Below, piece after piece: positions 6,289 through 40,137 of a DNA stretch of 64,000 nucleotides (the first letter of the stretch is position 1; each line of letters opens with the position of its first letter). The translations under genes and the position numbers were made by a program. Below the pieces are notes generated by a model, which was not told the DNA's origin, did not search any database, and saw only the letters and a program-made list of their open reading frames with translations. The stretch lies in the NCBI RefSeq assembly GCF_988243305.1, contig NZ_OZ547136.1; one strand, given 5' to 3'.

Positions 6289-6302
6289 ACTGGATATGTA
6301 GT

Positions 6303-6340
6303 CAGGGTATAAATAAGTATTTATACCCTTATTTTTTACT
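6303..6340 (+). terminator. Rho-independent terminator after the helicase gene
   Basis: Hairpin AGGGTATAAATA-ag-TATTTATACCCT followed by TATTTTTT, 15 bp after stop codon at 6286-6288. Confidence 0.6.
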
Positions 6341-6659: not shown

Positions 6660-6723
6660 CGTTCTCCTTTATGGTAATACGAACCTGTTTTTTTAATATA
6701 TAGAAAAATTACTCCGACATGTT

Positions 6724-7368
6724 TTATCTTTTTGAAATCAGGACATTTACCAACTCACTTAAAACTCTCTTTTGTTCTTCATCCTGAAGATATTGAATCC
6801 GGAATTTAATCTCTTCTGCAACCCGCCTTGTATCGGACTCATTAAGTATTTTTGTTATTCGCTGTCTCTGATGTTCAGGCTGGTCTTCCATATTTCGTAA
6901 AACCAGATGAAATAATATATCATAAAGTGCGCAATGCCATGAATAACCATCATTGGTTAGAATAAGCTCCCAAACCCGCTCCTGTTCGGCAATAAGCTGC
7001 AGAACAAAGGATTCAACCTGTTCTGATTGTCCGGGGACAACCCGGTATAGCGGCGCAATCACAGCAAAAAACAGTTCATTTAGCCAGGATTCCGCCTCTT
7101 TCTCGCTCCTGAAAGATGGACAGTTCTGTATTCTTCGTTCGTATTCACGGGTAACCTGCTCCGGAATATCCTCCGGCGGTGTCAGCCACTTATTCCTGAG
7201 CAATATACTGGTTGACGGATGGCAGCAGGCTATTTCAGCAATAATTTCACGTAATGCCTCCGGGCTGAATTTCTTCAGCTGATTGTAGTGCTCCCGGGTA
7301 AAACCATGATCATCGCATAAAAGTTGCCATGTCATTGATATACTGTTTGCCATTCCTTTCTTCATCAT
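6724..7368 (-). CDS. Hypothetical protein (214 aa), operon partner of ParB-like/PAPS-reductase-like genes
   Basis: Intact ORF 20 bp downstream of preceding gene on same strand; no recognised domain. Confidence 0.5.
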   Translation of the reverse strand: MMKKGMANSISMTWQLLCDDHGFTREHYNQLKKFSPEALREIIAEIACCHPSTSILLRNKWLTPPEDIPEQVTREYERRIQNCPSFRSEKEAESWLNELFFAVIAPLYRVVPGQSEQVESFVLQLIAEQERVWELILTNDGYSWHCALYDILFHLVLRNMEDQPEHQRQRITKILNESDTRRVAEEIKFRIQYLQDEEQKRVLSELVNVLISKR

Positions 7369-7388
7369 TAATACCTGTTACCTGAATA

Positions 7389-7697
7389 TCAACAGACCGG
7401 TGTACCTTTTCTGAATACCTCCCCGGACGGACTGGCAATCCCCATTCGCCTCAGCGTGGCATCTGCAGCTTTCGCCACTTCGCTGATATCCAGCTTTTCA
7501 GGTAGCGGCGGGGACGATATCTGCGCCAGACAATAATTCCTGCGCAACAACAACCACTCCCGTTGTGCTTCTGTACATTCAACATTTCCCATAACAAAAA
7601 GCCAGCGGGCGGAAGCTCTGCGCCAGCAACCCGCAGCCTCCAGCTTCTGTGCAACCATGTCTTCCACGACTTCCGGGGTACTCTTTTTCCTGCTCAA
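7389..7697 (-). CDS. Hypothetical small protein (102 aa)
   Basis: ORF 39 bp downstream of ParB-like gene, same strand; no recognised domain. Confidence 0.45.
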   Translation of the reverse strand: MSRKKSTPEVVEDMVAQKLEAAGCWRRASARWLFVMGNVECTEAQREWLLLRRNYCLAQISSPPLPEKLDISEVAKAADATLRRMGIASPSGEVFRKGTPVC

Positions 7698-7736
7698 AAC
7701 ATTAACTCACTGAAATAATATACATATATGACGGTC

Positions 7737-8375
7737 TCAGCGAACCGTCCATGCCGGACTGAAATCCTCTTCCAGAAACAGCTCCGTCAGCCCGCTAATC
7801 TGTTTCAACCTGAGAACTTCATCCTGGTCCATACCCAGCTCCGTACCAATACGTTCATCCGTCCAGCCCAGCCGCGACAGGTCCCTGACAATATCAGACA
7901 TTGAAGTTATCTGGTGCTTCCCCCTGGCCCGGTTATGTCTAATGGTTGCAGCAATACGTGAGGCCTGTCCCTTTCTTTCCGGATTAATACAGGTCACTGG
8001 CAACCAGCCCTTCAGGCGTTTTCCCGTACCTGCTTCCCTGCCCAGTAATTGACGATGAAAACCATCCACGACCAGATAATGCTCCTTCTCTTCCGAGACA
8101 ACCACAGGCTGCGTGAACCCATCCTGCTCCAGTGAATGTTTCAGCAGTTTCTTCTCACCCGGCGCCATGACATTGGGGTTATAATCGTTGGCCACCACCT
8201 CATCTGCTTTCACCCACAGCACACAGTCCACAGGCTCCTGTGCAAATGGACTGACCTCATGAAGCACCCTGCGCAGATGATTCAGGGCCTGTATGGCCTC
8301 TTCTTCTGGTCGTTCCTGGCTGAAGTACTGACGAATCATGTTGCTCAGTATCTCCGGTGTCACAGAATCCCCCAT
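7737..8375 (-). CDS. ParB/Srx-like nuclease-domain protein (IbrB/YbdM family)
   Basis: 212-aa ORF with ParB-like core (YLVVDGFHR); overlaps upstream PAPS-reductase-like gene by 16 nt. Confidence 0.8.
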   Translation of the reverse strand: MGDSVTPEILSNMIRQYFSQERPEEEAIQALNHLRRVLHEVSPFAQEPVDCVLWVKADEVVANDYNPNVMAPGEKKLLKHSLEQDGFTQPVVVSEEKEHYLVVDGFHRQLLGREAGTGKRLKGWLPVTCINPERKGQASRIAATIRHNRARGKHQITSMSDIVRDLSRLGWTDERIGTELGMDQDEVLRLKQISGLTELFLEEDFSPAWTVR

Positions 8376-9592
8376 TCCTTCCTCCTTTCTTTCATACGCT
8401 GCAGATAACGTTCATAGTGCCGGGGTTTGTTCGGACTGAAGGAGAGGGTACGGCACCAGAAATCATTCTTTATAAGTGTCTTACAGATACGCCGCCAGGA
8501 CGGAATATCCCGGCTCCCCAGGTCATTCTCCTGTTCATCCGGGATGTCATCCGGGAAGCCCCGCGTCTGATACCAGCGCAGGTAGACAGCAATTTTATTA
8601 CGGTAATGTTCTGCCGTTCTTTCCGGCATCACATCCAGCAGGAACATCGCATAGCTGCGCCAGGTATGATGGGCTGGTTTTGATATACGTTTACGCAGGG
8701 CAAAATAGGCACCGCTTTCATTGGCATAAAGCGCCCCGCTGGCAGCGCCTGACACCCGCTCACACATCCTGGCCCAGGTTTCCGGTTCCAGAACATGGTA
8801 AAGCCACAGTCCCTTACGTTGTTCAGGACCAAAAGGTTCACAGACACGCATGTTGCGTAACGGTACGCCGGCACGGTACATCAGATCATACAGGGGATTG
8901 TAGATGGCACGGGTTCTGGTGTGATATATCCAGATATCACGAGTTTTCCAGTCATACAGCGGATACATAGTGTAGTAAAACCCTTCAGGCGATGCCGTGG
9001 TCCAAGGCTTATCATCGGCATATCTCAGTTTGCGCTGGGACACCAGTCCCATAAAGCGGTTGAGGGATTCATCCGCCCGAACACCGGTCAGCACTGCCAC
9101 TCCACACCGGTTGCCAGCAAACCAGGAAGAAAATGCCGGAACAAATTCTTCAAACGTCATGGCATACCGGTAAAAGGGAAAATACGCCATATCCGTAATG
9201 GCCTCTTCCGGTGGCTGGCGAACCCAGGTCACACGAGGCTCCCAGCATATCCACTCCGGTTGAAACTGCGAGACACCGTTTACCGTGGTCAGGGGAAGCG
9301 CCACCCAGTAAAAGGTTTCCGTCACATCATGGTACATTTCCCGCATCTTCTGAATATGTTCAATGGTGCACTGGTACTGAGCCTCCCAGTCAATGAACAG
9401 TACAGAGAAACGACGTCTTTTCCTGCGGGCCACATCAGCCACAAGATGGAAAAGCACGGTGGAATCTTTACCACCGGAAAAAGAGAGACAAACTGATGGA
9501 AATGTTTCAAAAATCCACTCAATACGAGCAATTGCTGCACGCAGAACATTCTCTCCAGTAAGGACTTTCTCCGTTAAAAAATTATCATTCAT
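8360..9592 (-). CDS. PAPS reductase-like / adenine nucleotide alpha-hydrolase protein (IbrA/YbdN family, DndC-like fold)
   Basis: 410-aa ORF with PP-loop SFSGGKDS near N-terminus; translationally coupled to the ParB-like gene. Confidence 0.8.
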   Translation of the reverse strand: MNDNFLTEKVLTGENVLRAAIARIEWIFETFPSVCLSFSGGKDSTVLFHLVADVARRKRRRFSVLFIDWEAQYQCTIEHIQKMREMYHDVTETFYWVALPLTTVNGVSQFQPEWICWEPRVTWVRQPPEEAITDMAYFPFYRYAMTFEEFVPAFSSWFAGNRCGVAVLTGVRADESLNRFMGLVSQRKLRYADDKPWTTASPEGFYYTMYPLYDWKTRDIWIYHTRTRAIYNPLYDLMYRAGVPLRNMRVCEPFGPEQRKGLWLYHVLEPETWARMCERVSGAASGALYANESGAYFALRKRISKPAHHTWRSYAMFLLDVMPERTAEHYRNKIAVYLRWYQTRGFPDDIPDEQENDLGSRDIPSWRRICKTLIKNDFWCRTLSFSPNKPRHYERYLQRMKERRKEWGIL

Positions 9593-9732
9593 TTATTTTT
9601 ACTTTATGCAAAAGAAACCTGTTTATGCTTTCAACATATAGCAACAAACATTAAATGACGTTTAATTAGCCACTACTAAAATTGCTTACTTTCATCCTGA
9701 TGAACATATAAAACATATTACAAACATATTTA

Positions 9733-24998: not shown

Positions 24999-25298
24999 AT
25001 GAAAAAACGAATCATAAACGCACCGACCCCGGATATTTTGGCTATGTTGAAACGGCGTATGCCCGGGGAGTTTCGTTCGCGTTTGGATTTGATTCGCATC
25101 GACGCCATTGGTTTGTTAATACTGCCGGTTCCGGATCTCTATTTTTATGCCGACGTAGCCAGTAAAAGCGCCAATGTGGTGGTATCAGAAATCTTTGGCA
25201 GTTGCCCTCAGCATATCACCACATTGGCCATTTTTGGCGAAGTCGCGGCGGTGCATGAAGCCATGCGAATCATTGAGGAAGACGATAACCAGTTTTGA
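24999..25298 (+). CDS. Circularly permuted BMC shell protein (PduU/EutS-like)
   Basis: 99-aa ORF resembling EutS/PduU pattern (AIGLLILPVPD...TLAIFGEVAAVHEA). Confidence 0.6.
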   Translation: MKKRIINAPTPDILAMLKRRMPGEFRSRLDLIRIDAIGLLILPVPDLYFYADVASKSANVVVSEIFGSCPQHITTLAIFGEVAAVHEAMRIIEEDDNQF

Positions 25299-25308
25299 GA
25301 GTCCGCTT

Positions 25309-25884
25309 ATGAAGAAGATATTACTTATCACAGGCGATTTCTCTGAAGACTATGAAGTCATGGTGCCATGGCAGGCATTAAACATGTTAGGTTTCAGAGT
25401 GGATGTAGTGTGTCCGGGAAAACGTACCGGCGAGTTTATTAAAACCGCGATTCATGATTTTGAAGGTGATCAGACCTACACCGAAAAACCCGGACATCTT
25501 TTTAGATTAACTGCATCATTTGATGACATAAGGTTACAGGAATATAGTGGTGTTTATATTTCTGGTGGGCGTTCATCGGAATACTTGCGATTAAATAAGT
25601 CAGTATTGGATATCGTGCATTACGCGATGAATTTAACATTACCTGTTGCTGCAATTTGTCATGGCCCACAAATTCTGGCCGCTGCTGGGGTATTAAAAGG
25701 CCGGAAACTGACGGGATATTTTACGGTAAAACCGGAAGTGGAAATGGCGGGTGGCCAGTGGGTCACTGCCGCAGATGATGAAGCCATTGTGGATGGTAAT
25801 TTAATAACCGCGACTACCTGGATGGGGCATCCAGCAATATTACGTCACTTTATTACTCAAATGGGCACTAGCATTATTCATTAA
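25309..25884 (+). CDS. DJ-1/PfpI family protein (class I glutamine amidotransferase-like)
   Basis: Start at ATG 25309 (MKKILLITGDF); nucleophile elbow AAICHGPQIL. Confidence 0.8.
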   Translation: MKKILLITGDFSEDYEVMVPWQALNMLGFRVDVVCPGKRTGEFIKTAIHDFEGDQTYTEKPGHLFRLTASFDDIRLQEYSGVYISGGRSSEYLRLNKSVLDIVHYAMNLTLPVAAICHGPQILAAAGVLKGRKLTGYFTVKPEVEMAGGQWVTAADDEAIVDGNLITATTWMGHPAILRHFITQMGTSIIH

Positions 25885-25932
25885 TACCCTGGCATCTCCA
25901 CAAGGTTAACAAAATATATTCGGGAGTTTTAT

Positions 25933-28485
25933 ATGTTAGAGAAAGGCTTTTCTAATCCGACAGACCGTGTTGTAAGACTGAGAAATATGATCCTGACGGC
26001 GAAGCCGTATGTGGAATCAGAACGCGCGGTGTTAGCAACCGAAGCATATAAAGAAACAGAACAACTGCCCGCGATTATGCGTCGTGCTAAAGTGGTGGAA
26101 AAAATCTTTAACCAATTACCGGTAACAATTCGCCCAGACGAATTAATCGTTGGAGCGGTAACTATTAATCCTCGCTCAACTGAAATCTGCCCTGAGTTCT
26201 CCTACGACTGGGTGGAAAAAGAGTTTGAGACTATGGAACACCGTATTGCCGACCCGTTTGTTATCCCGAAAAAGACTGCTCAGGAGCTTCATGAAGCATT
26301 TAAATACTGGCCGGGTAAAACTACCAGTGCTCTGGCGGCATCTTACATGTCAGAAGGCACTAAAGAGAGTATGGCGAGCGGTGTATTCACTGTTGGTAAC
26401 TACTTCTTCGGGGGCGTCGGTCATGTCAGTGTTGACTACGGTAAAGTGCTGAAAATTGGTTTCCGTGGTATCATTAATGAAGTTAGCCGTGCCTTGGAAT
26501 CATTAGATCGCACTGAACCAGGATATATAAAGAAAGAACAGTTCTATAATGCGGTGCTGATCAGTTATAACGCAGCGATCCGTTTCGCCCATCGTTACGC
26601 TGAAGAAGCATCCCGTCTGGCGCAGCAGGAGAGCAATCCGACCCGTAAACGCGAACTGGAGCAGATTGCTCAAAACTGTACTCGCGTGCCGGAATACGGT
26701 GCTACCACATTCTGGGAAGCATGCCAGACATTCTGGTTTATTCAGAGCATGTTACAGATTGAATCCAGCGGTCATTCTATCTCCCCGGGGCGTTTCGACC
26801 AGTATATGTACCCGTATCTGGAGTCGGACAAATCTATCTCGCGTGAATTCGCGCAGGAACTGGTGGATTGCTGCTGGATCAAGCTTAACGACATTAACAA
26901 AACGCGTGACGAAGTCTCTGCCCAGGCGTTTGCCGGTTACGCAGTGTTCCAGAACCTGTGCTGTGGCGGCCAGACAGAAGACGGTCGCGACGCAACTAAC
27001 GATCTGAGCTACATGTGTATGGAAGCGACTGCCCATGTGCGTCTGCCGCAGCCATCCTTCTCAATCCGCGTATGGCAGGGTACTCCGGATGAGTTTCTGT
27101 ATCGCGCTTGCGAGCTGGTGCGTATGGGCCTGGGCGTTCCGGCAATGTACAACGATGAAGTAATCATCCCGGCGCTGCAGAACCGTGGCATTTCGCTGCG
27201 TGATGCGCGTGATTACTGTATCATCGGCTGCGTAGAGCCGCAGGCACCGCATCGCACCGAGGGCTGGCATGACGCCGCGTTCTTTAACGTTGCAAAAGTG
27301 CTGGAAATCACCCTGAACAACGGTCGCGTTGGCAATAAACAGCTAGGCCCAGTGACTGGCGAACTGACTCAGTTCACCAGCATGGAGGACTTCTACACCG
27401 CGTTCCAGAAACAGATGGCGCACTTCGTTCATCAACTGGTTGAAGCCTGTAACAGCGTGGATATTGCCCACGGCGAACGCTGCCCGCTGCCGTTCCTATC
27501 AGCACTGGTCGACGACTGTATCGGCCGTGGTAAATCTCTCCAGGAAGGCGGGGCGATTTACAACTTTACTGGGCCGCAAGCATTCGGCGTAGCCGATACC
27601 GGCGACTCCGTCTATGCCATCCAGAAACAGGTATTCGAAGATCGTAAACTGTCTTTGAGCGAACTGAAAAGCGCACTGGACGCCAACTTCGGTTATCCGG
27701 TGGGTGCGAACCCGCACACTCCAGCGGCGAAATCCTCGCTCAACGAGCAGGATATCTACGATGTGGTGAAACGCATCATTGAACATCATGGCGCGCTGGA
27801 TCCGGCAGCGATTAAAAACGAAGTTTATCGCCAGCTGACTTCCGGCAGTGCAGCACCGGTGCAATCCGGCACTATGTCCCGTCACGAGGAGATCCGTCGT
27901 ATTCTGGAAAACACACCGTGCTTCGGTAACGACATCGATGACGTGGATTTAGTAGCGCGTAAATGTGCGCTGATCTACTGCCAGGAAGTTGAGAAATATA
28001 CCAACCCGCGCGGTGGCCAGTTCCAGGCTGGTATCTATCCGGTGTCTGCGAACGTGCTGTTTGGTAAAGACGTTGCCGCACTGCCGGATGGCCGTCTGGC
28101 GAAAGAGCCGTTGGCGGATGGCGTATCTCCACGTCAGGGTAAAGACACCCTTGGCCCAACCGCCGCAGCCAACTCAGTTGCCAAACTGGATCACTTTATC
28201 GCCTCCAACGGTACGCTCTATAATCAGAAATTCCTGCCGTCTTCTTTGGCTGGCGAGAACGGTCTGCGCAACTTCAGCGGCCTGATACGTCACTACTTCG
28301 ATAAGAAAGGGATGCACGTTCAATTTAACGTTATCGACCGCAACACTTTGATCGAAGCCCAGAAAAATCCTGAGCAACATCAGGATCTGGTGGTACGCGT
28401 TGCGGGCTATAGCGCCCAGTGGGTAGTTTTAGCGAAAGAAGTTCAGGACGACATAATCAGCCGTACTGAGCAACAACTGTCGTAA
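25933..28485 (+). CDS. Glycyl radical enzyme (PFL-fold dehydratase/lyase; substrate uncertain)
   Basis: 850-aa ORF; active-site GCVEP; C-terminal glycine-radical motif RVAGYSA. Confidence 0.9.
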   Translation: MLEKGFSNPTDRVVRLRNMILTAKPYVESERAVLATEAYKETEQLPAIMRRAKVVEKIFNQLPVTIRPDELIVGAVTINPRSTEICPEFSYDWVEKEFETMEHRIADPFVIPKKTAQELHEAFKYWPGKTTSALAASYMSEGTKESMASGVFTVGNYFFGGVGHVSVDYGKVLKIGFRGIINEVSRALESLDRTEPGYIKKEQFYNAVLISYNAAIRFAHRYAEEASRLAQQESNPTRKRELEQIAQNCTRVPEYGATTFWEACQTFWFIQSMLQIESSGHSISPGRFDQYMYPYLESDKSISREFAQELVDCCWIKLNDINKTRDEVSAQAFAGYAVFQNLCCGGQTEDGRDATNDLSYMCMEATAHVRLPQPSFSIRVWQGTPDEFLYRACELVRMGLGVPAMYNDEVIIPALQNRGISLRDARDYCIIGCVEPQAPHRTEGWHDAAFFNVAKVLEITLNNGRVGNKQLGPVTGELTQFTSMEDFYTAFQKQMAHFVHQLVEACNSVDIAHGERCPLPFLSALVDDCIGRGKSLQEGGAIYNFTGPQAFGVADTGDSVYAIQKQVFEDRKLSLSELKSALDANFGYPVGANPHTPAAKSSLNEQDIYDVVKRIIEHHGALDPAAIKNEVYRQLTSGSAAPVQSGTMSRHEEIRRILENTPCFGNDIDDVDLVARKCALIYCQEVEKYTNPRGGQFQAGIYPVSANVLFGKDVAALPDGRLAKEPLADGVSPRQGKDTLGPTAAANSVAKLDHFIASNGTLYNQKFLPSSLAGENGLRNFSGLIRHYFDKKGMHVQFNVIDRNTLIEAQKNPEQHQDLVVRVAGYSAQWVVLAKEVQDDIISRTEQQLS

Positions 28486-28593
28486 ATACCAGACGGGCTA
28501 TGTATCAATATATAGCCCGTTACTTTCTCCACGACTTCTGGTTGTTACTTTTATCTGAAAAGGTAATTCATCTGGTAAATATAGAGTGATGTT

Positions 28594-29511
28594 ATGAATA
28601 AAGTTGAGTACGAAACCGAAGGCGTCATATTTAATATTCAACGCTATTCTTTGCATGATGGTCCAGGCATTCGAACCATTCCTTTTTTTAAAGGCTGCCC
28701 GCTGTCCTGCAAATGGTGTAGTAATCCTGAATCACAACGTCACAGCCCAGAGTTATTATTTAAAAAGAATGATTGCATCCGCTGTGGGAAATGTATTGAT
28801 GCTTGCCCACAACAGGCTCTTTCCACTACTAATGCCTGGTTTATCAATCGCGACCGCTGTATTCAGTGTGGGAAATGTACTGAGATTTGCCCTACCCGTG
28901 CGCTGGAAATGAAGGGCAAGCGTATGTCGGTAACGGCAGTGATGCGCGAACTGGAAAAAGAAGAGAATTTATACCGGCGTTCAGGCGGCGGGATTACCCT
29001 GTCCGGTGGTGAACCGCTGGCGCAGCCGGAATTTGCCCGCGAGCTGCTTAAAGCCTGTAAAGCCAAAGGCTGGCACACCGCTATTGAAACAAGCGGCTTC
29101 ACCACCAAAGCGGTGATTGATGAGGTATTTCCCTATGTCGATCTTGCTCTGACCGATATTAAAGCCATCGATCCGGAAATCCATGAGCGCAACACCGGCG
29201 TGAATAACAGAGTGATTCTGGAGAATCTGCTGCGCATCTCCTTTTTAACCAAAGTGGTTGTGCGTATTCCTGTGATCCCAGGAGTGAATGACAATTCGCA
29301 GGAAATCCATAATATTGCGGAGTTCGCCCGCCTGATGCAGAACGTCGATACCATTCACTTATTGCCTTATCACAGCTTCGGTGAAAATAAATATAATCTG
29401 CTTGGTCGCCAGTATCCGATGGGCGATACAAAAAGTATCGAAGAAGCCCAAATGGCAGAGTTAAAAGCAATGGTTGAATCCTTAGGTTTTAACTGCCATA
29501 TCGGCGGTTAA
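28594..29511 (+). CDS. Glycyl-radical enzyme activating enzyme (radical SAM)
   Basis: 305-aa ORF; CxxxCxxC-type cluster CPLSCKWCSNPE plus ferredoxin-like Cys clusters. Confidence 0.9.
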   Translation: MNKVEYETEGVIFNIQRYSLHDGPGIRTIPFFKGCPLSCKWCSNPESQRHSPELLFKKNDCIRCGKCIDACPQQALSTTNAWFINRDRCIQCGKCTEICPTRALEMKGKRMSVTAVMRELEKEENLYRRSGGGITLSGGEPLAQPEFARELLKACKAKGWHTAIETSGFTTKAVIDEVFPYVDLALTDIKAIDPEIHERNTGVNNRVILENLLRISFLTKVVVRIPVIPGVNDNSQEIHNIAEFARLMQNVDTIHLLPYHSFGENKYNLLGRQYPMGDTKSIEEAQMAELKAMVESLGFNCHIGG

Positions 29512-29647
29512 TAAAAGATGTAATAAGAGTGCAAAAAAATGCTGCGCTTGTTTATTTGTTACGCATGAATACTATTTCAATTTTAAAAATATAGAGCAAT
29601 CTGCATTACTTATATTGTCATTTGATTTAATTACAGAGGTAAGCTAG

Positions 29648-30553
29648 ATGAATAGCTTAGATATTGTAGTTGCCTTCGGCGGCGGCATATTTGGTGCGGC
29701 TGTTGGAGCGCTGGCGGCGTTTGAATTCGTTGGGCTTCTGGTTATCGCCATGACGGTAGTGCAAATTATTACCGGAGCATCATCGGACTTTATTACTTTT
29801 CCGTTTGGACTGTTTGGCCCGCACACCGGCGGCTTTGCCGCTGGGGTTGCGGCGACGGCGTATGCAGCGAAGAAAGGCAAGCTGGGTTCCGGGCGTGATA
29901 TCACTGCCGGGTTGAGCGGTCTGGCGGCTTACGATGTGCTGCTGGTAGGCGGGGTTTTTGGGGCGGTTGGTTACATCATCGCCTGGGGGTTGAACCAGAT
30001 TCCGGCCTTCCCGTCCGGCAATGCTTGGACCGATACCGTGGCACTAACCGTGGTGATTTCTGGCGTGGTCTCGCGTCTGGTTTTCGGTAAAACTGGCCTG
30101 TTTGGAAAACCGGAGCAGGGAATTCGTCACTGCTATCCGCCGCAGGATAAGTGCTGGATACCTTACCATAGCCGCATTCCGCAGCTTTCCGTGCTGGGCT
30201 TGGGTATTGGCTTGATGGCAGGCTTTTTAGGCCTGAAGTTTGGCGGCAACGGCGCGCTGCTGGCGTTTGGTATTTCCGCGTTCTCACTGATTTTCCTGCA
30301 TTTCAATACTCAGGTACCGGTGTCACATCATATTTCGCTGCCTGCCGCGTTGGTAGCGGTGCCATCAGGTAGCCTGATTTGGGCTGCTATCGTTGGCATA
30401 ATTTGCGCGATATTGGGTGAACTGATGTCGCGTATCTTCCTGATCCACGGCGATACACATATTGACCCGCCGGCGATGGTCATCACCATTATGACCACGA
30501 TGATTAATCTGTTGGCGACCATTGGATTATTTACCTTGGTTCCCCTGTTTTAA
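29648..30553 (+). CDS. Polytopic integral membrane protein (possible substrate/product channel of the GRM locus)
   Basis: 301-aa highly hydrophobic ORF, Gly/Ala-rich helices; good RBS. Confidence 0.65.
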   Translation: MNSLDIVVAFGGGIFGAAVGALAAFEFVGLLVIAMTVVQIITGASSDFITFPFGLFGPHTGGFAAGVAATAYAAKKGKLGSGRDITAGLSGLAAYDVLLVGGVFGAVGYIIAWGLNQIPAFPSGNAWTDTVALTVVISGVVSRLVFGKTGLFGKPEQGIRHCYPPQDKCWIPYHSRIPQLSVLGLGIGLMAGFLGLKFGGNGALLAFGISAFSLIFLHFNTQVPVSHHISLPAALVAVPSGSLIWAAIVGIICAILGELMSRIFLIHGDTHIDPPAMVITIMTTMINLLATIGLFTLVPLF

Positions 30554-30565
30554 TCCCGCCATAAC

Positions 30566-30600
30566 AAAAAGCCAGCAGTGTCTGCCTGCTGGCTTTTTGT
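30566..30600 (+). terminator. Rho-independent terminator (also the probable group II intron target)
   Basis: Hairpin GCCAGCAG-tgtctgc-CTGCTGGC followed by TTTTT, 13 bp after stop codon. Confidence 0.7.
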
Positions 30601-30603
30601 TAT

Positions 30604-32406
30604 GTGCGCCGTGACTGGCGCTGTTCTTCAACTGTGGTGGCAGAAGAACGACTAAGAGGTGAAAGTCCTCCACACACCCGGTGAGGGGAAGTGTTAGCGG
30701 AAGGCAAGGGTGTTCATCGCGAGGTGAAATCTGAAGGAAGCTGGATGCAAAATGCTGGCCTGACGAACAGGAAGCGGTTAAGTCGGCGCAGCAGGGTAAG
30801 GTGGCACAAATCACCAAAGCCCGATACTCACACGGAACGCTGTGACGTAAAGCCGACAGGCATAAGCAGGAAAGTCGCGTGAATTACCCCGGGAGATCTG
30901 TCGCCCTGCCAGTGTGCTACCGGCGCCGTGAGGCGCCGGGATGGGGCGGCAGAAGTCAGCCGACGCCGTAGTAGTGCTGCAAAACCGGCAGCATGAAGGG
31001 CCGAACATGATTAACTGTGATTAGGACATCCGAACCCGATGATGATTAATGAAGCACAAGCGCAGGCAACTGCGACCAGCGGCAGAGGAGACGGACAGTA
31101 TCCGTCAGGGCTGCATGATGGCGCTGAAATCAGCACGGCGGCGGGTGGGCAAACGAAAGCGGAAGTGCCGCTGACGATGGAAGCGGTGATAACGAGAGAA
31201 AACCTGATGCTGGCTTATCAGCGCGTGGTGGAAAACAAAGGCACGGCGGGGGTGGATAACCTCAGCGTGGCGGAGTTGAAACCGTGGCTGAAGAAGAACT
31301 GGCGCAGCGTCAGGCAGGCATTGATTGACGGAAACTACCAGCCGCGGGCAATACGCCGGATGGATATCCCGAAGCCGCATGGCGGCGTGAGAACCTCAGG
31401 CATCCCGACGGTGGTGGACAGGCTTATCCAGCAGGCGGTGCAACAGGCACAGCGTTACATACGGGGTGGCAAACGGTGGGTGGTGGATATGGATCTGGAG
31501 AAGTTCTTCGACCGTGTGGATCACAGACTCCTGATGACGCGTCTGGCCAGAACGATAAAGGACAGGCGGGTGCTGTGACTGATACGCCGCTACCTGAAAG
31601 CGGAAATGGTTAAAGACGGGCAAAGGGAGAAACGGCAGGCGGGCATGCTGCAGGGCGGCCCACTGTCGCCGTTACTGTCGAACATCCTGCTGGATGAACT
31701 GGATAAAGAACTGGAGCGTCGTGGACACAGCTTCTGCCGCTACGCAGACGACTGCAACATCTACGTAAGCAGCCGGAAAGCGGGCGACCATCTGCTGAAG
31801 AACATCAGGGCGTTCGTGGAGAACAAACTGAAGGTGAATGAGAAGAAGAGCGCGGTGGCGCGCCCGTGGGATCGGAAGTTCCTCGGGTACAGTGTGACAT
31901 GGCACAAACAGGCGAAGCTGAAGATAGCCCTGACGAGCGTGAACAGGCTGAAGGAGAAAGTCCACAGTCTGACGACGGGAAACCGGAGCAAATCAGTGAA
32001 AGCGACAATCAATGCTCTGACACCAGTGCTGTGTGGATGGATAAGCTACTTCAGGCTGACGGAAGTCAGAGGAGTGCTGGAGGAGCTGGATGGCTGGATC
32101 AAACGGAAACTGCGTTGCTTGTTGTAGCGGCAGTGGAAGAGACCGCTAACCCGGGCAAAGAACCTGCAAAGAGCAGGACTGAGTAAGGACAGGGCAATGA
32201 TCTCTGCGTACAACAACCACGGGCCATGGTGGAACTCAGGGTCAAGCCATATGAATCAGGCGATAAAGAATACATGGTTCAGGAGGCAGGGTCTGATATC
32301 ACTGCTGGAACAGTAGAGGCAGTTCCAGAGTTAACATGAACCGCCGTATGCGGAACCGCACGTACGGTGGTGTGAGAGGACGGCGGGAGTGATCCCGCCT
32401 CCTACT
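30604..32406 (+). mobile_element. Group II intron (bacterial class C-like, inserted just downstream of a terminator hairpin), degenerate
   Basis: 5' end GTGCG at 30604; domain V-like hairpin at ~32341-32372; internal RT/maturase ORF; 3' boundary approximate. Confidence 0.7.
31039..32316 (+). pseudogene. Group II intron reverse transcriptase/maturase with two in-frame stop codons and an internal deletion
   Basis: RT motifs (LEKFFDRVDH, QGGPLSPLLSNILLD, YADD); in-frame TGA at 31576-31578 and TAG at 32125-32127 with homology continuing downstream (GPWWNSGSSHMN); ~30 aa missing after LIQQAV. Confidence 0.75.
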
Positions 32407-32676
32407 CGATCAATTTTAAAACACCTCCTATGTAGGTGGTGATCGTTCATGTGGGGCTTTCTGACAGACTGCCTCGTCATTCCATTCGTATCGCCAGTAA
32501 CTGGCGTTTGTATTGTGGCAGTTCTGGTATACGTTTCCCTGTGTATCTGCACTGGTTCAGCAAGGTTTGAAAAGGAGTATCCCTTGCAAATAACCGAAGC
32601 ATTACTTTCAGAGCCGGAGCTGTTTTTGTTGCTGTGATCCATTTCAATTTTTTCGTGACAAATTATTTATAAATAT

Positions 32677-33939
32677 ATGATTATGTTTTTAAAAATGCAG
32701 GCTGAAAGTATGAAGAATAAATACAAATTAAATGAGTTTTTGGATGTAAAACGCCTTCAGACCCTGCAGGACAACTTTTCAAAATCAATGATGATCGCGC
32801 TCGTGGTTGTGGATGAGAATGGTATCCCGGTCACTAAGCCCAGCGGTTTTTCAGACTTCTGCATGCGTTCGCGTCTCAACCCGACACTGGCGCACCACTG
32901 TTATGAAAGCGACAACGCTGGTGGCCGGGCCGCGATGCACGCTCGCAAACCGGTGGTTTATCGCTGCCACTGCGGTTTTGTCGAATTCGCTGTCCCAATC
33001 ATGATTAACGATCATTATCTCGGTGCTTTTATTTCCGGTCAGGTAAAAGTCGAAGAAGAGAAAGAACAGAGCATTTCCTATATTCTGAATAATAATGACG
33101 TCTGGAAAGATAATCCTTGGTTAATTAATTTGCACCAGAATACACGTCGCATGCCGTATGAGCGTTTTGAGTCTACTGCCTCGACGTTACTACACGTATC
33201 GTCTTATCTGGTCGAACAAGCGCACACCAATAATATCCAACGCGAACTTCGTAAAAAGGATCTTGCACTGGCTAATGAGTTAAGAAAACGTGTAGAGATA
33301 GAACGCTCACTACATGAAGCTGAATTTAAAGCGCTCTCTTATCAGATAAATCCGCACTTTTTATTTAACGTATTAAATACCATTGGCCGGTTAGCTTTTC
33401 TTGAAGATGCGCAGCGTACCGAAACAATGGTGCACGATTTCTCTGACATGATGCGCTATTTGTTACGTAAAAATAGTCACGGCCTGATTACTCTGCGTAA
33501 TGAAATAAATTACGTCAACAACTATATGTCGATCCAAAAAGTGCGTATGAGAGACCGTTTCGATTACCTGTGCGATATCCCGGAAAAATATCTGGATGTA
33601 GTCTGCCCGTTTTTGATCCTGCAACCGCTGGTGGAAAACTTCTTTAACTACGTAGTGGAGCCAAGGGATAGCAATAGTCATCTGCTGATCCGTGCCACGG
33701 ACGATGGCCTGAACGTGATTATTGAAGTCACTGACAATGGCGACGGCATCGCACCAGATACCATTAATCGCATTTTATCAGGCGACCAAAAATTGCAAAA
33801 AGGCAGTATTGGCATTAACAACATAAAAAATAGATTGAAGTTGTTATTTGGCGAGAGCTATGGCTTGGAAATAATGAGCCCTAACAAACCCAGGATGGGT
33901 ACAACCATTAAACTTCGGTTCCCAATGCAGGAAGCCTGA
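32677..33939 (+). CDS. Sensor histidine kinase with N-terminal PocR ligand-binding domain
   Basis: 420-aa ORF; PocR-like N-terminus, His-kinase region ([11 protein letters not shown]) and HATPase_c; start may be at 32695 or 32710. Confidence 0.8.
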
Positions 33940-33955
33940 TACAGGAAAAGGACAT

Positions 33956-35011
33956 ATGTTTACCATTGTTATCGTTGAAGATGAGCCCATCGAATTAGAA
34001 TCCCTGCGGCAGATTATCTCCCAGTGTGTGGAAAACGCTGCGATCCATGAAGCCTCAACCGGTAAAAAAGCGATTCACTTAATTGACCAACTGAGTCAAA
34101 TCGATATGATCTTAGTGGACATTAATATTCCGTTGCCGAACGGTAAACAGGTGATTGAATATCTGAAGAAAAAAAACAGCGATACTAAAATCATCGTAAT
34201 CACGGCCAATGATGACTTTGATATAGTACGCAGCATGTACAACCTTAAAGTGGATGATTATCTGCTCAAACCAGTGAAAAAATGTATCTTGACCGACACC
34301 ATCAAAAAAACCCTAGCATTCGACGAAGGAGAAAATGAAAAATCCCGCGCCCTAAAACAGAAAGTGTTCGCCATGATAGACGATTGCGATTACACCCAGT
34401 GGCACAACTTTATTTTTGACACGCTCAACGGTGCCTGTCCGGTGGATATGATAGAAGAGGATAAGCGCAAAGACGTGATCGATTTTCTGGAAATAGTTAG
34501 CCAGTATATGACCGCCAAAGGGGAAAAGTTAATGCCGACTAACCGTAAAGTCGCCGCGCTGATCAAAGACATCAACCAGTATGGCATGATGGAAAGCCGC
34601 TATTTCCGCATCATGATCAGCCTGCTGACCATTAGCGAAGAGCTGTTTGATTACGCATTAAAAGGCTATACAGGCAATATCGATTTTATCGAACGAGCGA
34701 AATTCCATATTGAGAAAAATATTCTCAGAAACTTGACGCTCGATGACGTGGCAGCAAAATCGTTTGTCAGTGCCTGCTATTTGAGCCGTACCTTTAAGAA
34801 AATTACCGGGTTCGGGTTTTCGAACTATATTGCCACGCGTAAAATTACTATCGCCAAATCGTTATTGCGGTTCAGTGACTTACAAGTAAATACCATTGCG
34901 CTGGAACTGGCATACCAGGATTCAAACTATTTTTGCCGCATCTTCAAAAAAGATACTGGCATGACCCCCTCTGATTATCGAAAAGTCGTGTCCCCGGGAA
35001 TTACACGGTGA
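33956..35011 (+). CDS. Response regulator with AraC-type HTH output domain
   Basis: 351-aa ORF; receiver domain (IVIVEDEP...LVDINIP) and C-terminal AraC HTH. Confidence 0.85.
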   Translation: MFTIVIVEDEPIELESLRQIISQCVENAAIHEASTGKKAIHLIDQLSQIDMILVDINIPLPNGKQVIEYLKKKNSDTKIIVITANDDFDIVRSMYNLKVDDYLLKPVKKCILTDTIKKTLAFDEGENEKSRALKQKVFAMIDDCDYTQWHNFIFDTLNGACPVDMIEEDKRKDVIDFLEIVSQYMTAKGEKLMPTNRKVAALIKDINQYGMMESRYFRIMISLLTISEELFDYALKGYTGNIDFIERAKFHIEKNILRNLTLDDVAAKSFVSACYLSRTFKKITGFGFSNYIATRKITIAKSLLRFSDLQVNTIALELAYQDSNYFCRIFKKDTGMTPSDYRKVVSPGITR

Positions 35012-35078
35012 TGGCGTGATTTTGCATTGGCCCGATAATGAAAGCAAAATAGTCCAACACGCCCGCAAGATAGTTTAC

Positions 35079-35134
35079 GCCCACTTGTCAGGTTCCTATC
35101 CTAAGATAGGAATAAACTTCCCAAACAAGTGGGC
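35079..35134 (+). promoter_or_regulatory. Nested inverted repeat immediately upstream of the MetK-paralog start codon (candidate RNA structure or operator)
   Basis: Outer stem GCCCACTTGT/ACAAGTGGGC enclosing inner palindrome TTCCTATC-ctaa-GATAGGAA; ends 6 nt before the TTG start; no SD visible. Confidence 0.35.
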
Positions 35135-35139
35135 TCGCT

Positions 35140-36291
35140 TTGAACGATTACCTGTTTACCTCCGAATCCGTTGCCGAAGGGCATCCCGATAAAATGGCGG
35201 ACCAAATTTCTGATGCCATTTTGGATGCGATACTCCTACAGGACCCGTGGGGTAAGGTTGCCTGTGAATGCTTGGTGAAAACTGGTGCCACTATTGTTGC
35301 CGGAGAAATATCTACCCATGCCGCCGTGGATATTGAGAAGATTGTCCGCAACACCATAAAAGAGATTGGTTACGACCATTCGCGATTGGGGTTTGATGGC
35401 AATACCTGCTGTGTATTAAATATCCTTGGCAAACAGTCCGCCAATATTGCTGACGGCATTCGCGGCCACTCGATGGAAGAACTGGGGGCGGGCGATCAGG
35501 GCATCACCTTCGGTTACGCCTGTGATGAAACGTCGGAACTGATGCCCGCCACGCTGGTATACGCCCATCGTCTGATGGAGCGCCAGGCGCAGTTGCGTAA
35601 ATCCCAACGGTTACCATTTTTACTCCCTGATGCCAAAAGCCAGGTTACCCTGCGCTATCAGGATAATCGTGTTCATTCAGTAGATACCGTTGTGGTGTCT
35701 ACCCAACACAGCCCTGACGTTTCTCTGGACGCGCTACGGGAAGCGGTCATCGAAGAAATTGTTAAACCTGTGATGCCTTCGCACTGGCTCACGCCACAAA
35801 CCCGCTTTCTGGTGAACCCTGCAGGCAGTTTTGTGATTGGCGGGCCGGTGGGTGACTGCGGGCTAACGGGGCGTAAAATTATTGTTGATACCTATGGCGG
35901 CGCGGCTTGCCATGGCGGCGGCGCGTTTTCAGGCAAAGATCCGTCGAAAGTCGATCGTTCCGCCGCCTACGCTGCTCGCTATGTGGCGAAAAACATCGTC
36001 GCCGCTGGGCTTGCCTCACGCTGTGAAGTCCAGTTGGGATGGGCCATCGGCCTGCCCCGCCCTGTTTCCGTCAGGATTAACACCTTCGGTACACAAACAG
36101 TGTCATCTGAAGCGTTGCTGAGAGGCGTTAACAGCCATTTCGATCTTAGCGTGTTCGGCATCATTACTACGCTTGATCTGCTGGTCCCCCGCTATCGTAA
36201 AACAGCCTGCTATGGTCACTTTGGTCGCGACAGCTTTCCGTGGGAAGTTACGGACAAAGCGGCGCTATTATACGAAGACGTTGGACGTTAA
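35140..36291 (+). CDS. metK: S-adenosylmethionine synthetase (MetK paralog embedded in GRM locus)
   Basis: 383-aa ORF with MetK motifs [23 protein letters not shown] start inferred from alignment to MetK N-terminus; diverges from E. coli MetK as recalled. Confidence 0.85.
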
Positions 36292-36335
36292 GCCGACGAC
36301 GCGCAGCACAGTTGAATTTATTACAGGAGAAATTT

Positions 36336-36881
36336 ATGTCTGGGAAAAGTTTAGGCTTAATCGAAACCGTCGGGATGTCTGCGGCGGTAGAAGCCGCCGA
36401 TGCCGCAATGAAATCCGCTAACGTTAGTCTGGTAGGCTATGAATTGACGAAAGGCGGCGGGATGGTGACCGTGAAGCTGGAAGGGGAAGTGGGCGCAATT
36501 AACGCGGCGGTAGCGGCAGCCATCAGCGCGGCAAGCCGGGTTGGCGAGGTGTATGCCCATAAGGTGATCGCCCGCACCGCGCAGCATATCGAGCAGATTA
36601 TTCACTCTAAAGTGACCGCCGGCGTCGCAGAACCTCAACCTGAAGTGCCTGCTGCACAACCGACACTGCAGGCTGAAAACGCGCCTTCACAGACATTCCC
36701 GGTGGTTAACCTTGATACGTCAATCAGCGCATCCTGTATGGATGTCACTGATGAAACGCTGAAGTCCATGGAGCAGCATCAACCGGTTAAACCCTCAATA
36801 GAAAACACTAAACCTACAAAATCTGATGTACCGCAGGAGGCAGCAAAGAAAGGTCCTCGTTCCAGCGGCAAGAAAAAATAA
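36336..36881 (+). CDS. BMC-H shell protein with long low-complexity C-terminal extension
   Basis: Start at ATG 36336 with RBS ACAGGAGA; BMC domain (MSGKSLGLIETVGMSAAVEAAD) then ~90-aa Pro/Ser/Lys-rich tail. Confidence 0.8.
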   Translation: MSGKSLGLIETVGMSAAVEAADAAMKSANVSLVGYELTKGGGMVTVKLEGEVGAINAAVAAAISAASRVGEVYAHKVIARTAQHIEQIIHSKVTAGVAEPQPEVPAAQPTLQAENAPSQTFPVVNLDTSISASCMDVTDETLKSMEQHQPVKPSIENTKPTKSDVPQEAAKKGPRSSGKKK

Positions 36882-36899
36882 GTAAATTGCTATGACGCT

Positions 36900-36937
36900 G
36901 CCGCGATAACAATTTCTTTATCGCGGCATTTTTTTGC
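36900..36937 (+). terminator. Rho-independent terminator at end of GRM locus
   Basis: Hairpin GCCGCGATA...TATCGCGGC followed by ATTTTTTT, 19 bp after stop. Confidence 0.65.
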
Positions 36938-37237
36938 TTAACAGATAAAGTAAAAAACCATCTGCATAGCGGGCGGCTTTGACACGGCCCCCTGAAAGGG
37001 GGCTTAAACACTACCCTTTCAGGCCCAGTTGTATTTGTCTTTCTTCTTCCTCTTTTGCTACCTTGTTCGAAAAGGGACGCTCGTCCTCGCCCACTGTTCT
37101 GTATGCATACCTGCTCCCACTGCAAATTATATTGCTGGGCTATGTTAACAAGCCTATATGCTATTAAAAACTCATGAGCAACATATTGATAATACCATTC
37201 TTATATATCCACGCTTAAGTAAATAACTCTTACATAA

Positions 37238-37582
37238 CTAACTATTCCATCTCACTTCTTCCTTAGCGAGTTTTCGGTATGCAATAGGAGCTATACCAAA
37301 GCGGCGAGTAAATGCCCTTGTAAATGTCTGCTGAAAATCAAACTGATATTTAAAAGTGATAGTCGTGACCGATTCAGTAGTAGAACGTAGTTCTTCTGCT
37401 GCATTTATTAATATACCTACCAATAGAAATACCAATGATATGTTTAAACAATTTCTGTAAATACCATTTTGAATATCCAGCTTTTTTGCCTCAATATTTA
37501 TTGAGAGTTCTACCTCAAGATTTTCATCAATTCATTTAGCAAGCTCATTGATATCAGCGCTGTTTTTTATAGTAGCGTTCAT
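37238..37582 (-). pseudogene. MarA/SoxS-family AraC-type regulator with in-frame premature TGA codon
   Basis: Translation MNATIKNSADINELAK-stop-IDENLEV...QQTFTRAFTRRFGIAPIAYR aligns with SoxS/MarA; stop sits where homologs have Trp; start overlaps 3' end of TetR-family gene. Confidence 0.5.
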
Positions 37583-38225
37583 TTTTATCGATGCCTGTGA
37601 AGGTTGATTGGGTCAACTCCAGTACTATGCAACCCTCTCTGAAAAGGGATTTATTATCAGGTTGCAGAATGCAACTTCGCACCACCCCCGTAAACAAAGA
37701 AAAAAGCAGGAACGCCAGAGCCTCACTACGAATTTCCGAACATATTTCTCTATATAACTTACCTTTTTCGAAAATATAACATAGTAATTTCACAAAATTA
37801 TTGACATCCACCATTTTTTGTAAGAAATTTATTCTTATATCATCCGGACATTCTTCACAAAAAAACACAATATAAATTACATTCCGTAAGTGTACATTAT
37901 ATTGTAATTTAATCAGGCTACGTGATAAGCAACGATACATCGCTTTAACCGGTTCAGAAACTCTCCCATTTTTGATGGCTGTAAGCTCATCAAATAATGA
38001 TAGTGGTACCCGCTCGATGACTTGTCGCAGAAGATCTTTTTTTTCGTTGAAATACCAGTATATGGCCCCCCGAGTACAACCTGCGCGCACCGCAATCATC
38101 TCCAGTGTCGTCTTCGAAAAGCCCGTCTCACAAAAGCAGAACTCTGCCGCATCCAGGATTTGTTTGCGGGTTTCTTCCGCTGCAAATTTTGTGTGCCGCA
38201 CCACTGTTGAAATCTCCATTGACAT
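37554..38225 (-). CDS. TetR-family transcriptional regulator (AcrR/EnvR-like)
   Basis: 223-aa ORF with N-terminal TetR HTH (TRKQILDAAEFCFCETGFSKTTLEMIAVRAGCTRGAIYWYF). Confidence 0.8.
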   Translation of the reverse strand: MSMEISTVVRHTKFAAEETRKQILDAAEFCFCETGFSKTTLEMIAVRAGCTRGAIYWYFNEKKDLLRQVIERVPLSLFDELTAIKNGRVSEPVKAMYRCLSRSLIKLQYNVHLRNVIYIVFFCEECPDDIRINFLQKMVDVNNFVKLLCYIFEKGKLYREICSEIRSEALAFLLFSLFTGVVRSCILQPDNKSLFREGCIVLELTQSTFTGIDKNERYYKKQR

Positions 38226-38324
38226 CTTATTTCAGGAAATATCTCTGGGGCATTTAGTACCAACCCAACAGCCATTTACTCAGGCGCAGTATGTTGTTTA
38301 CTGCACCTGAATATTTACTCATGC

Positions 38325-39481
38325 TTATGATTGCTCAGCTTCAGTCTTATCCGATGATTTCTTATTTCTGCGGCTGAAGAACCCGGCAATTAACATATAG
38401 AAGAGAGGAATATAAAAGATTGCCAGTATCGTAGCAGTGATCATCCCTCCAACCACACCAGTACCGATGGCATGTTTACTTCCGGAACTTGCTCCAGTCG
38501 AGACAGCCAGTGGGATAACCCCCATTACAAATGCCAGCGAAGTCATAATTATCGGTCTTAACCTCACTCTCGCCGCTTCAACAGCAGCCTCTTTAATGCT
38601 TAGTCCTTCTTTCTCATGCAATTCACGAGCAAACTCCACGATAAGTATGGCATTTTTCGCAGACAGCCCTATTGTTGTTAATAAACCGACCTGGAAAAAG
38701 ACATCGTTACCAAGGCCGCGCAACAAAGTAGCACAGACAGCCCCCAGGACACCAAGCGGAACAACCAGCATGACCGAGAAAGGAATGCTCCAGCTTTCAT
38801 ACAGTGCAGCCAGACACAGAAAGACGATCAACAGTGAAAGTGCATATAGTGCAGGAGCCTGAGAACCTGAAAGTCGTTCCTCAAAAGACAAACCTGTCCA
38901 GGAAATATGGAAACCTTCGGGAAGTCTTGCCGCAATATCCTCAATTGCTTTCATTGCATCCCCGGAACTGTATCCTGGTGCCGGTTCCCCCAGGATTTCG
39001 ACAGCAGAGATACCATTATATTGCTCCAGTTTTGGTGAGCCATAAATCCATTTGCCTGTTGCAAAAGAGGCAAAGGAAACCATGTCGCCATCACTGTTAC
39101 GGACATACCATTTATCAAAATCCTGCGGTGATATACGTGAGCCGGGTTCGCCCTAAATATAGACTTTTTTCACCCGTCCACGATCGTTAAAATCATTTAC
39201 ATACATCGAACCCCAGGCTGCTGGCATTATGTTGTCGACGTCGCTCATGCTCAGTTTAAGCGCCTGAACTTTCTCGTCATCAATCAGAATCTGGAACTGA
39301 GGCTCATCGTTCATGCCGTTAGGACGAACCATGTTTAACGCTGGACTTTTCGCCGCTTCAGCAAGAAGCTGATTTCGGGCCTGGATCATTTTTTCATGGC
39401 CAGCTCCGCTACGATCCTCGAGGAACAGGTCAAACCCTGTAGCATTCCCCAGTTCTGATACGGCAGGGGGCGTTTTAAAAC
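38325..39481 (-). pseudogene. RND efflux transporter (AcrB/AcrF-like) 3' remnant, frameshifted and truncated by IS2
   Basis: 252-aa ORF matches AcrB C-terminal TM bundle; adjacent 78-aa ORF (39153-39389) matches an internal AcrB segment in another frame; 5' end replaced by IS2 at 39482. Confidence 0.75.
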
Positions 39482-39833
39482 TAGACTAGCCCCCAGAATC
39501 TCCAGACAACCAATATCACTTAAATAAGTGATAGTCTTAATACTAGTTTTTAGACTAGTCATTGGAGAACAGATGATTGATGTCTTAGGACCGGAGAAAC
39601 GCAGACGGCGTACTACACAGGAAAAGATCGCTATTGTTCAGCAGAGCTTTGAGCCGGGAATGACGGTCTCCCTTGTTGCCCGGCAACACGGTGTGGCAGC
39701 CAGCCAGTTATTTCTCTGGCGCAAGCAATACCAGGAGGGAAGTCTTACTGCTGTGGCCGCAGGAGAACAGGTCGTTCCTGCCTCTGAACTTGCTGCTGCC
39801 ATGAAGCAGATTAAAGAACTCCAGCGCCTGCTG
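39482..39833 (+). mobile_element. IS2 left-end fragment with truncated orfA (InsC-like)
   Basis: Terminal sequence TAGACTAGCCCCCAGAATCTCCAGACAACC and InsC N-terminus [26 protein letters not shown]...; homology ends near 39833. Confidence 0.8.
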
Positions 39834-40137
39834 AACAAAACGCCGGATGTCTCCCGGCTCTGAAATTAAGGCTTCGGTTATTTGCACGAAATGTTCCTTT
39901 TCAAACCCTGTTGAATTTTGTTAAGCCGGTGCAGACACACGGAAAACGCACATCAACACCGGACGGTACGATACAAACACCAGTGACTGGCGGGACGAAG
40001 GGAATGACGAATCAGTCAGGAAATGATGACAAACAGTTGGCAGACCAGAGGAGTCAGCAGAAAGATGAGCGGGAGTGTCGCCAGCATCGGGGACAGGGCT
40101 GATTTCCGCAATACCAGCGCCGGCATTGCAACACGTT

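Follow-up and report, generated by a model that had tools for sequence, protein, structure and literature searches.

In the glycyl-radical propanediol microcompartment locus (grpA-grpS) of E. coli, a broken reverse transcriptase (RT) gene lies between grpO and grpP, which raises the questions of what was inserted there, whether it can still splice or move, and what it has done to its surroundings. The window analyzed here is a stretch of 64,000 nt from contig NZ_OZ547136.1 (assembly GCF_988243305.1), and all positions refer to it unless another sequence is named. A first-pass annotation of the DNA had proposed a degenerate class C group II intron just past a terminator in a microcompartment locus, and this description was upheld by covariance models, by the RVT_1 and GIIM domains of the encoded protein, by its IIC RT relatives and by the published class of the element. 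A complete group II intron of 1807 nt occupies positions 30604-32410 (+), and it can be identified with high confidence as the bacterial class C (IIC) group II intron retroelement E.c.I6, now an immobile fossil that is carried along with the grp/selC island.

The window intron is an ordinary element that has already been catalogued, and is not new. E.c.I6-1a is listed, in Zimmerly-type nomenclature, at NC_004431 4320108-4321914 for E. coli CFT073/ED1a (Leclercq & Cordaux 2012, PMC3522654), and is described there as class C, located in the 'PAI SelC-Island', with a disrupted open reading frame (ORF) and 'inactivated' (PMC3522654). With the stop codon of grpO as an anchor, these coordinates map exactly onto 30604-32410, and the CFT073 copy differs from the window copy at 4 of 1807 positions, so that element, class, inactivated status and island are the same in both. 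The individual lesions, the IS200-like neighbor and the inverted grpPQRS block described below are not itemized in that entry. The boundaries of E.c.I6 (a IIC ribozyme with a class C ORF) are fixed by Rfam, by the published coordinates and by the limits of homology to independent copies, which starts and stops exactly at the two intron ends. The first nucleotides are GTGCG (30604-30608) and the last are ..CUCGAU (GAT at 32408-32410), giving termini of the GUGYG and AY type. The extent first proposed, 30566-32406, took in the hairpin of the 5' exon at its start and stopped 4 nt short at its end, and every element described within it is present.

The whole window was scanned with Rfam covariance models at gathering thresholds, a check that had been suggested with the first-pass annotation, and matches above the gathering scores were obtained for D1-D4 as well as D5/D6, with all group II matches on the plus strand. 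Model group-II-D1D4-3 (RF02001) matched 30713-30882 with 134.7 bits (gathering 32) and group-II-D1D4-1 (RF01998) matched 30917-31001 with 73.8 bits (gathering 35), covering the ribozyme from the 3' part of domain I (D1) to the D3/D4 stem (30713-31001, +), while Intron_gpII (RF00029), which represents domains V and VI (D5/D6), matched 32339-32410 with 50.4 bits (gathering 40). The D5-like hairpin that had been noticed near 32341-32372 is domain V itself, at 32340-32371 (+). It carries CGC (32342-32344) instead of AGC and has a 3-bp distal stem with a GAAC loop; in the RF00029 alignment the CGC is aligned to the AGC of the model, and a 4-column gap leaves the distal stem 2 bp shorter. Domain VI follows at 32373-32408 (+), with a bulged A at 32404 (position -7), and the intron ends in ..GAU at 32410. 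The fold of D5 and D6 has an energy of -43.8 kcal/mol (z -6.5 against shuffled sequences). In two copies with an intact ORF, the bit scores for D1D4-3, D1D4-1 and D5/D6 are 139.3, 72.1 and 48.5, and 137, 71.4 and 50.4, about equal to those of the window copy. The ribozyme domains are thus all present, with scores that match those of copies whose genes are intact, and the RNA looks intact across the part covered by the Rfam models; the first 109 nt of the intron (30604-30712) lie outside every model.

Several independent features place the intron in class IIC/C. Hallmarks of IIC ribozymes include CGC in place of AGC in D5, a distal stem shortened by 2 bp, and an 11-nt bulge containing AGGAA (Toor et al. 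2006, PMC1702495). The first two are seen in domain V, as described above, and the bulge is found at 30730-30740 (+) as UCUGAAGGAAG, unpaired in the RF02001 alignment and with the conserved AGGAA at 30735-30739. Insertion behind a terminator, the lack of an endonuclease (En) domain in the intron-encoded protein (IEP), the IIC relatives of its RT and the published class all lead to the same assignment.

The 5' exon (30561-30603, +) consists of the intrinsic, bidirectional-type terminator hairpin of grpO (ORF 29648-30553), its U-tail, and the sequence TTAT (30600-30603), the intron-binding site 1 (IBS1). This segment folds into an 18-bp hairpin of -26.6 kcal/mol (z -8.1), a value that was reached by 0 of 200 shuffled sequences. 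The GC core, GCCAGCAG/CTGCTGGC, has its last base at 30593 and is followed by TTTTTGTTAT, and the GTGCG of the intron begins 10 nt on, at the distance that had been read from the sequence at the outset. The same hairpin is kept in Atlantibacter, where there is no intron and the junction reads GGCTTTTTGTTAT|CTCTCAGG, with the grpO terminator followed directly by the grpS terminator on the reverse strand. IIC introns insert a few nucleotides (3-11) past an intrinsic terminator or other stem-loop, which replaces IBS2 (PMC1702495). The placement of the window intron is of this kind, and terminator-like hairpins also precede its relatives at six other sites. A match to Thr_leader at 30562-30662 (-) scored 37 bits, below the gathering score of 55, and was rejected as merely the terminator hairpin.

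Between D4 and D5 lies a pseudogene for the intron-encoded RT/maturase (31039-32315, +), recognized by its translation, by Pfam, and by 96% DNA identity to the intact ltrA of the M11 intron. The frame was first described as about 1.28 kb long with two in-frame stops; it measures 1277 nt, and the stops are a TGA at 31576-31578 (+), where the intact relative has AGA (Arg), and a TAG at 32125-32127 (+), in the maturase domain region, where it has TGG (Trp). Lesions were mapped against intact IEP genes of 462 aa (ltrA of M11, from a 96% identical intron) and 448 aa. A third stop, created by a change from CAG to TAG at 32313, shortens the frame by 6 codons, and a 6-nt indel relative to M11 is also present. 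The most conspicuous lesion, identified from the M11 alignment and both translations, is an in-frame deletion of 87 nt between 7-nt direct repeats of GCAGGCG, with its junction at 31431-31437 (+). It removes IAQQLSAIVDKSFSDSSYGFRPGRNAWQA and with it the conserved YGFRPGR block, lowering the RVT_1 score from 153 to 98.6 bits; the resulting loss of 29 aa from the RT domain, relative to the 462-aa protein, is the gap of about 30 aa that had been suspected in the finger/palm region. YADD is kept, and Pfam still detects RVT_1 (5e-28) and GIIM (2e-18) in the conceptual translation. These are the only domains, with about 50 aa beyond GIIM and no endonuclease domain. An autonomous mobile intron has an intact IEP reading frame, and the window copy has none. 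When the intact homologue was compared with proteins in the PDB, it aligned over its full length with the GsI-IIC RT (6AR1; E 7e-141), followed by the further IIC maturases 7UIM, 5HHJ and 5HHL (1e-107 to 5e-85); LtrA gave 1e-42 and retron RTs 1e-6 to 1e-9.

A plausible course of events starts with an intron RNA-protein particle that would have recognized the grpO terminator stem-loop, 3-4 nt of IBS1 (..UUAU) and one 3' nucleotide (C). The intron would then have reverse-spliced into the DNA right behind the terminator tail and been copied into DNA by its own RT. Since the RT/maturase gene has been destroyed, this copy no longer makes the protein for efficient splicing and mobility, and its immobility follows if it shares the dependence of IIC introns on the IEP for splicing and movement in vivo (PMC1702495). 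The host has no need for splicing of this intron, since it lies between genes and past a terminator.

IIC introns pair IBS1 with EBS1 over just 3-4 bp and use an IBS3-EBS3 contact for the 3' exon. The exon-binding site 1 (EBS1) was assigned by covariation between a loop and the 5' exon in eight related copies at seven distinct insertion sites. It lies in the hairpin GGUG-GCACAAAU-CACC (30800-30815, +), and reads ACAA (30806-30809) in the window copy. The loop is AUAC with an IBS1 of GUAU in M11, 10R and a plasmid fragment, and AUAC with UUAU on an E. fergusonii plasmid; it is ACAA with UUGU in p13C1065T-3, pF1253-2 and VE-T2, and CAAU with UUUG on a Klebsiella plasmid, whose intron is 78% identical. 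The 5' end of the family varies in length. A long form, GTGCGCC(GGGCATGGCGCGTAGCGCC)GTGACTGG, is found in loci L001 (2980-3000), L004, L005 and L045 of those compared, and a form shorter by 19 nt, GTGCGCC^GTGACTGG, in the window (30604-30625), L006, L007 and L044, with GCGCCG repeats flanking the variable unit. Because the short form is found at several sites and both forms occur at one site, the shortening suggests a recurrent deletion between the GCGCCG repeats. That one site is shared by two plasmids, L005 with the long form and L044, at exactly the same insertion point, with the short form and an intact IEP gene. Minimum free energy folding of D1 was uninformative on the short 5' end.

Both of these features also weigh against the reading of the window copy as an element lost through its protein gene while its RNA stayed sound. 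Its EBS1 ACAA forms only 3 of 4 pairs with UUAU, with an internal A.C mismatch at position -2, and the CFT073 copy has a further loop change at 30808 that leaves 2 of 4 pairs. The unit missing from its 5' end, CCGGGCAYGGCGCG (CCGGGCAYGG), is conserved in the 78% identical Klebsiella relative, and because the short 5' end lacks this conserved sequence the ribozyme itself may also be impaired.

The intron was matched in some part in 1247 of 5426 complete E. coli genomes, and 549 records matched at 99% identity or more. Its flanks occur in about 535-540 of these genomes, and the stretch from grpO through the intron to grpP was at least 80% covered in 447. A comparison with intron-free alleles, which had been recommended with the first-pass annotation, could be made in part: none was found in E. 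coli, and the grp loci of other enterobacterial genera, located through GrpO relatives from 28 species representatives, are without the intron. A query of the joined flanks gave 0 contiguous matches among the 5426 complete E. coli genomes, the exact 24-mer of the empty site gave 0 in the GTDB species representatives, and in JGI metagenomes both the ancestral-type junction pattern and a pattern of the hairpin followed by a nucleotide other than G gave 0. Every complete E. coli genome that bears the grp locus carries the intron. Between the window and CFT073 the intron diverges by 0.22% and the flanking grp genes by 0.15-0.18%, and because the intron has diverged about as much as its flanks, these values are consistent with a passive co-inheritance of intron and island.

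The alternative with the most in its favor is that the RNA is still a working ribozyme that is spliced or mobilized in trans by the RT/maturase of a sister intron 94-96% identical to it, and is therefore dormant and not dead. The ribozyme domains do score on a par with those of intact copies, relatives bearing an intact ltrA are common (M11, p13C1065T-3, pF1253-2 and the E. fergusonii plasmid), and on 155 plasmids 80% or more of the intron is covered. A second intron match, which may be incomplete, is present in some grp-bearing chromosomes. However, a strong terminator stands upstream, so that little precursor RNA is expected, and the EBS1-IBS1 mismatch and the 5' end shorter by 19 nt may both hinder such a rescue. 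Nor were new insertions of the 99%-identical type seen outside grp, the 549 records at this level being roughly the number of grp loci. Rescue in trans is judged unlikely, and E.c.I6 is best regarded as a fossil at this site.

The DNA downstream of the intron has a history of its own. The 3' exon (32411-32462, +) corresponds to the left end of a decayed element of the IS200/IS605 family of insertion sequences (IS), with 30 of 32 nt identical to the same end of an IS200-family member carried by a Photobacterium plasmid. The right end of the same IS200-like element, with the last ~45 nt of tnpA, is found at 36945-37065 (-), where it matches L039 at 53 of 59 nt and L040 at 90 of 104 nt. The two ends are now 4.5 kb apart and inverted with respect to each other, and the right end is directly adjacent to the ancestral 3' exon, CTGTTAAGC, which is the reverse complement of 36936-36944. 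Both end hairpins match elements with an annotated IS200/IS605 tnpA, of which the ~45 nt are all that remains here. An intact relative with tnpA is inserted past ...TTTTTTTGTTGT on an Edwardsiella plasmid; the intact relatives on the Photobacterium and Edwardsiella plasmids follow ..TTTTTGTTGT, one of them directly past a terminator hairpin, and each of the three left ends is preceded by TTTTTGTT(G/A)T.

Left ends of IS200-family elements recur at the insertion point of this intron, in L005 (3357-3487), L044 (the same site), L039 (~925-937), L041 (~290-301) and the window (30594-30603). In p13C1065T-3 and pF1253-2, a bona fide IS200 starts no more than 8 nt from the 3' end of the intron (Rfam STnc490, L005 3364-3487), and in L041 an IS200-like relative lies directly behind a terminator hairpin. 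IS200-like elements and the IIC intron seem to share a landing site. Both kinds of element are thought to act on single-stranded or hairpin DNA.

Beyond the IS left end is a fragment of an island-backbone repeat ("segX", 32463-32618, +), which has no homology to grp loci from other genera and is 70-90% identical to other E. coli copies. Such copies were found in 3492 of the 5426 E. coli genomes, with as many as 6 locations in one genome. In an example from another island, segX lies between the gene for a helix-turn-helix (HTH) regulator and a UCP030791-family gene, and here it lies between the IS left end and the upstream region of grpP. No NCBIfam family was found for the small ORFs in 32331-32642.

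The grpP upstream region, grpPQRS and the grpS terminator (32619-36944, +) are inverted relative to all other genera examined. By blastn, positions 1-5455 of the Atlantibacter locus (L009) correspond to window positions 25158-30603, and positions 5442-9784 to window positions 36960 down to 32623 on the reverse strand. The reverse-strand arrangement of grpPQRS is found likewise in L008, L010-L013 and L016-L022. In 13 of 13 other enterobacterial loci with grpP within reach, grpP is on the opposite strand, and grpPQRS is convergent with grpA-O; among the loci compared, the two are co-directional only in E. coli. Because the IS left end follows the intron and the IS right end adjoins the ancestral 3' exon, the breakpoint lies inside the IS (32462/32463), 52 nt past the intron. 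The most economical history that can be inferred is one in which a single bond past the grpO terminator tail was the insertion point of both the IS200-like element and the intron, the order of IS first being the better fit to the IS target, and in which a segment of about 4.6 kb (32463 to ~37067) was later inverted, with the second breakpoint where a now-truncated SLC13 permease gene begins. This gene is cut after ~39 nt at the right-hand breakpoint, and the region from ~37070 to 39900 (L002 27639-29871) is a decayed cluster of RND-efflux, TetR, HTH and SLC13-permease genes, of which E. coli strain 10 (L038) has an intact version.

In E. coli the grp locus differs from that of other genera both in the inverted grpPQRS and in the mobile-element debris (intron, IS200-like ends and island-backbone fragment) between grpO and grpP. 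The genes grpP and grpQ are reported to be co-transcribed, and GrpP/GrpQ is a virulence-relevant two-component system (PMC11724981); the intron is not mentioned in that paper. Other genera share the 58 nt upstream of grpP, which include a promoter-like site (32655-32684) and are untouched by the intron. An influence of the intron on read-through or regulation had been suggested with the first-pass annotation; most likely it has no effect on grp expression, or a small one. A bolder proposal is that the grpO terminator tail (..TTTTTGTTAT^) served as a shared target for the IS200-like element and the IIC intron, that the resulting pile-up seeded the E. coli-specific inversion, and that read-through coupling thereby became possible. 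This is improbable; if true, read-through by way of a still-foldable 1.8-kb ribozyme would couple the virulence regulator GrpP/GrpQ to the expression of the microcompartment.

It has also to be asked whether the intron was exapted, its structured 1.8 kb of RNA or DNA acting together with the terminator as an insulator or regulator between grpA-O and the co-directional grpPQRS. Its fixation in every E. coli grp locus examined, the restriction of the co-directional arrangement to E. coli and the virulence relevance of GrpP/GrpQ (PMC11724981) would all suit such a role. Yet fixation is explained by inheritance of a single-origin island, with divergence equal to that of the flanks, the ORF decays freely, and the conserved region upstream of grpP, promoter-like site included, has been retained, while the GrpP/GrpQ paper is silent on the intron. 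Exaptation is accordingly rated very unlikely, and the intron is taken to be a passenger of the island.

A causal role of the intron in the inversion, either by recombination between two inverted intron copies or by aberrant reverse splicing, is suggested by the synteny with other genera, which breaks exactly at the 5' junction of the intron (L009 1-5455 against window 25158-30603), and by the TTAT that precedes both junctions. Against this, the 52 nt that follow the intron are the IS left end, the IS right end lies at the far end of the inverted block beside the ancestral 3' exon and has as its terminus the TTAT of the far junction, and Rfam scans found no second intron copy or fragment in the window, all of which makes this origin extremely unlikely. 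A breakpoint at the 3' end of the intron, with a second IIC target (..TTTTTTACTTTAT|CAATTTT), was considered and rejected; the joined sequence is that of an IS200-like right end plus left end, and is contiguous in no genome. That the RT-like ORF belongs to a retron, a defense RT or some other non-intron RT, an outcome that was named at the start as one that would overturn the identification, is refuted: NCBI names the fragments just 'reverse transcriptase family protein', but the GIIM maturase domain is present, the ORF is flanked by Rfam D1-D4 and D5/D6, the match to a IIC RT (7e-141) far exceeds those to retron RTs (1e-6 to 1e-9), and Rfam scans found no retron RNA family.

Other features of the island were seen in passing. 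The gene grpR (35140-36291) is a second S-adenosylmethionine synthetase gene, situated beside a glycyl-radical enzyme and its radical-SAM activase; it is already annotated and is not new. An IS10 end, CTGATGAATCCCCTAATGATTTT, runs from 59598 (59598-59760), with RNA-OUT at 59643-59712 (-; 99.5 bits). Position 59598 is also where collinearity ends with the otherwise 99-100% identical strain PRO_A-1401-6M-A, and because the IS10 end coincides with this break, an IS10/Tn10 insertion is indicated in the CP4-like toxin-antitoxin part of the island. A second group II remnant in the same island, E.c.F10a, is listed as 177 bp, class F and 77% similar to D.a.I1 (Table S3, PMC3522654). Offset from CFT073 4296437-4296613, its site in the window would be ~6933-7109 (-), where an overlapping ORF (6724-7368) has no RT match.

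What is added here to the catalogue entry amounts to side observations of modest value: the intron-free, opposite-strand grpPQRS of other genera, and the IS200-like ends at the inversion. For work on the Grp microcompartment and GrpP/GrpQ, constructs and transcript maps should allow for the inversion and the debris.

The closest known systems are the intact sister introns on the M11 chromosome and on p13C1065T-3, pF1253-2 and p18B233LT3 (E. coli, E. fergusonii and plasmids), with 94-96% DNA identity. All are located past terminator-like hairpins and have D5/D6 and the position of the EBS1 hairpin in common with the window copy. They differ from it in encoding full RT/maturases of 448-462 aa where it has a pseudogene, in the 5' end, which in most of them is 19 nt longer, and in an EBS1 that pairs with its own 5' exon at the three exon-proximal positions (3-4 of 4 bp), whereas the window copy is mismatched at -2. 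The model IIC introns B.h.I1 of Bacillus halodurans and O.i.I1 of Oceanobacillus iheyensis have other hosts and sequences and are biochemically active, in contrast to the dead IEP gene here, and the protein family of the window intron aligns over its full length with the GsI-IIC RT (PDB 6AR1). Nearer in host range are Di.ze.I1 and So.gl.I1, class C introns of Enterobacterales that are likewise low in copy number and downstream of Rho-independent terminators; their copies have intact ORFs and are considered potentially active, and E.c.I6 is not (PMC3522654). Set beside these, E.c.I6 is a textbook example of the fate described for group II introns of Enterobacterales, which insert past a terminator, lose their protein gene and are then carried passively by a mobile island.

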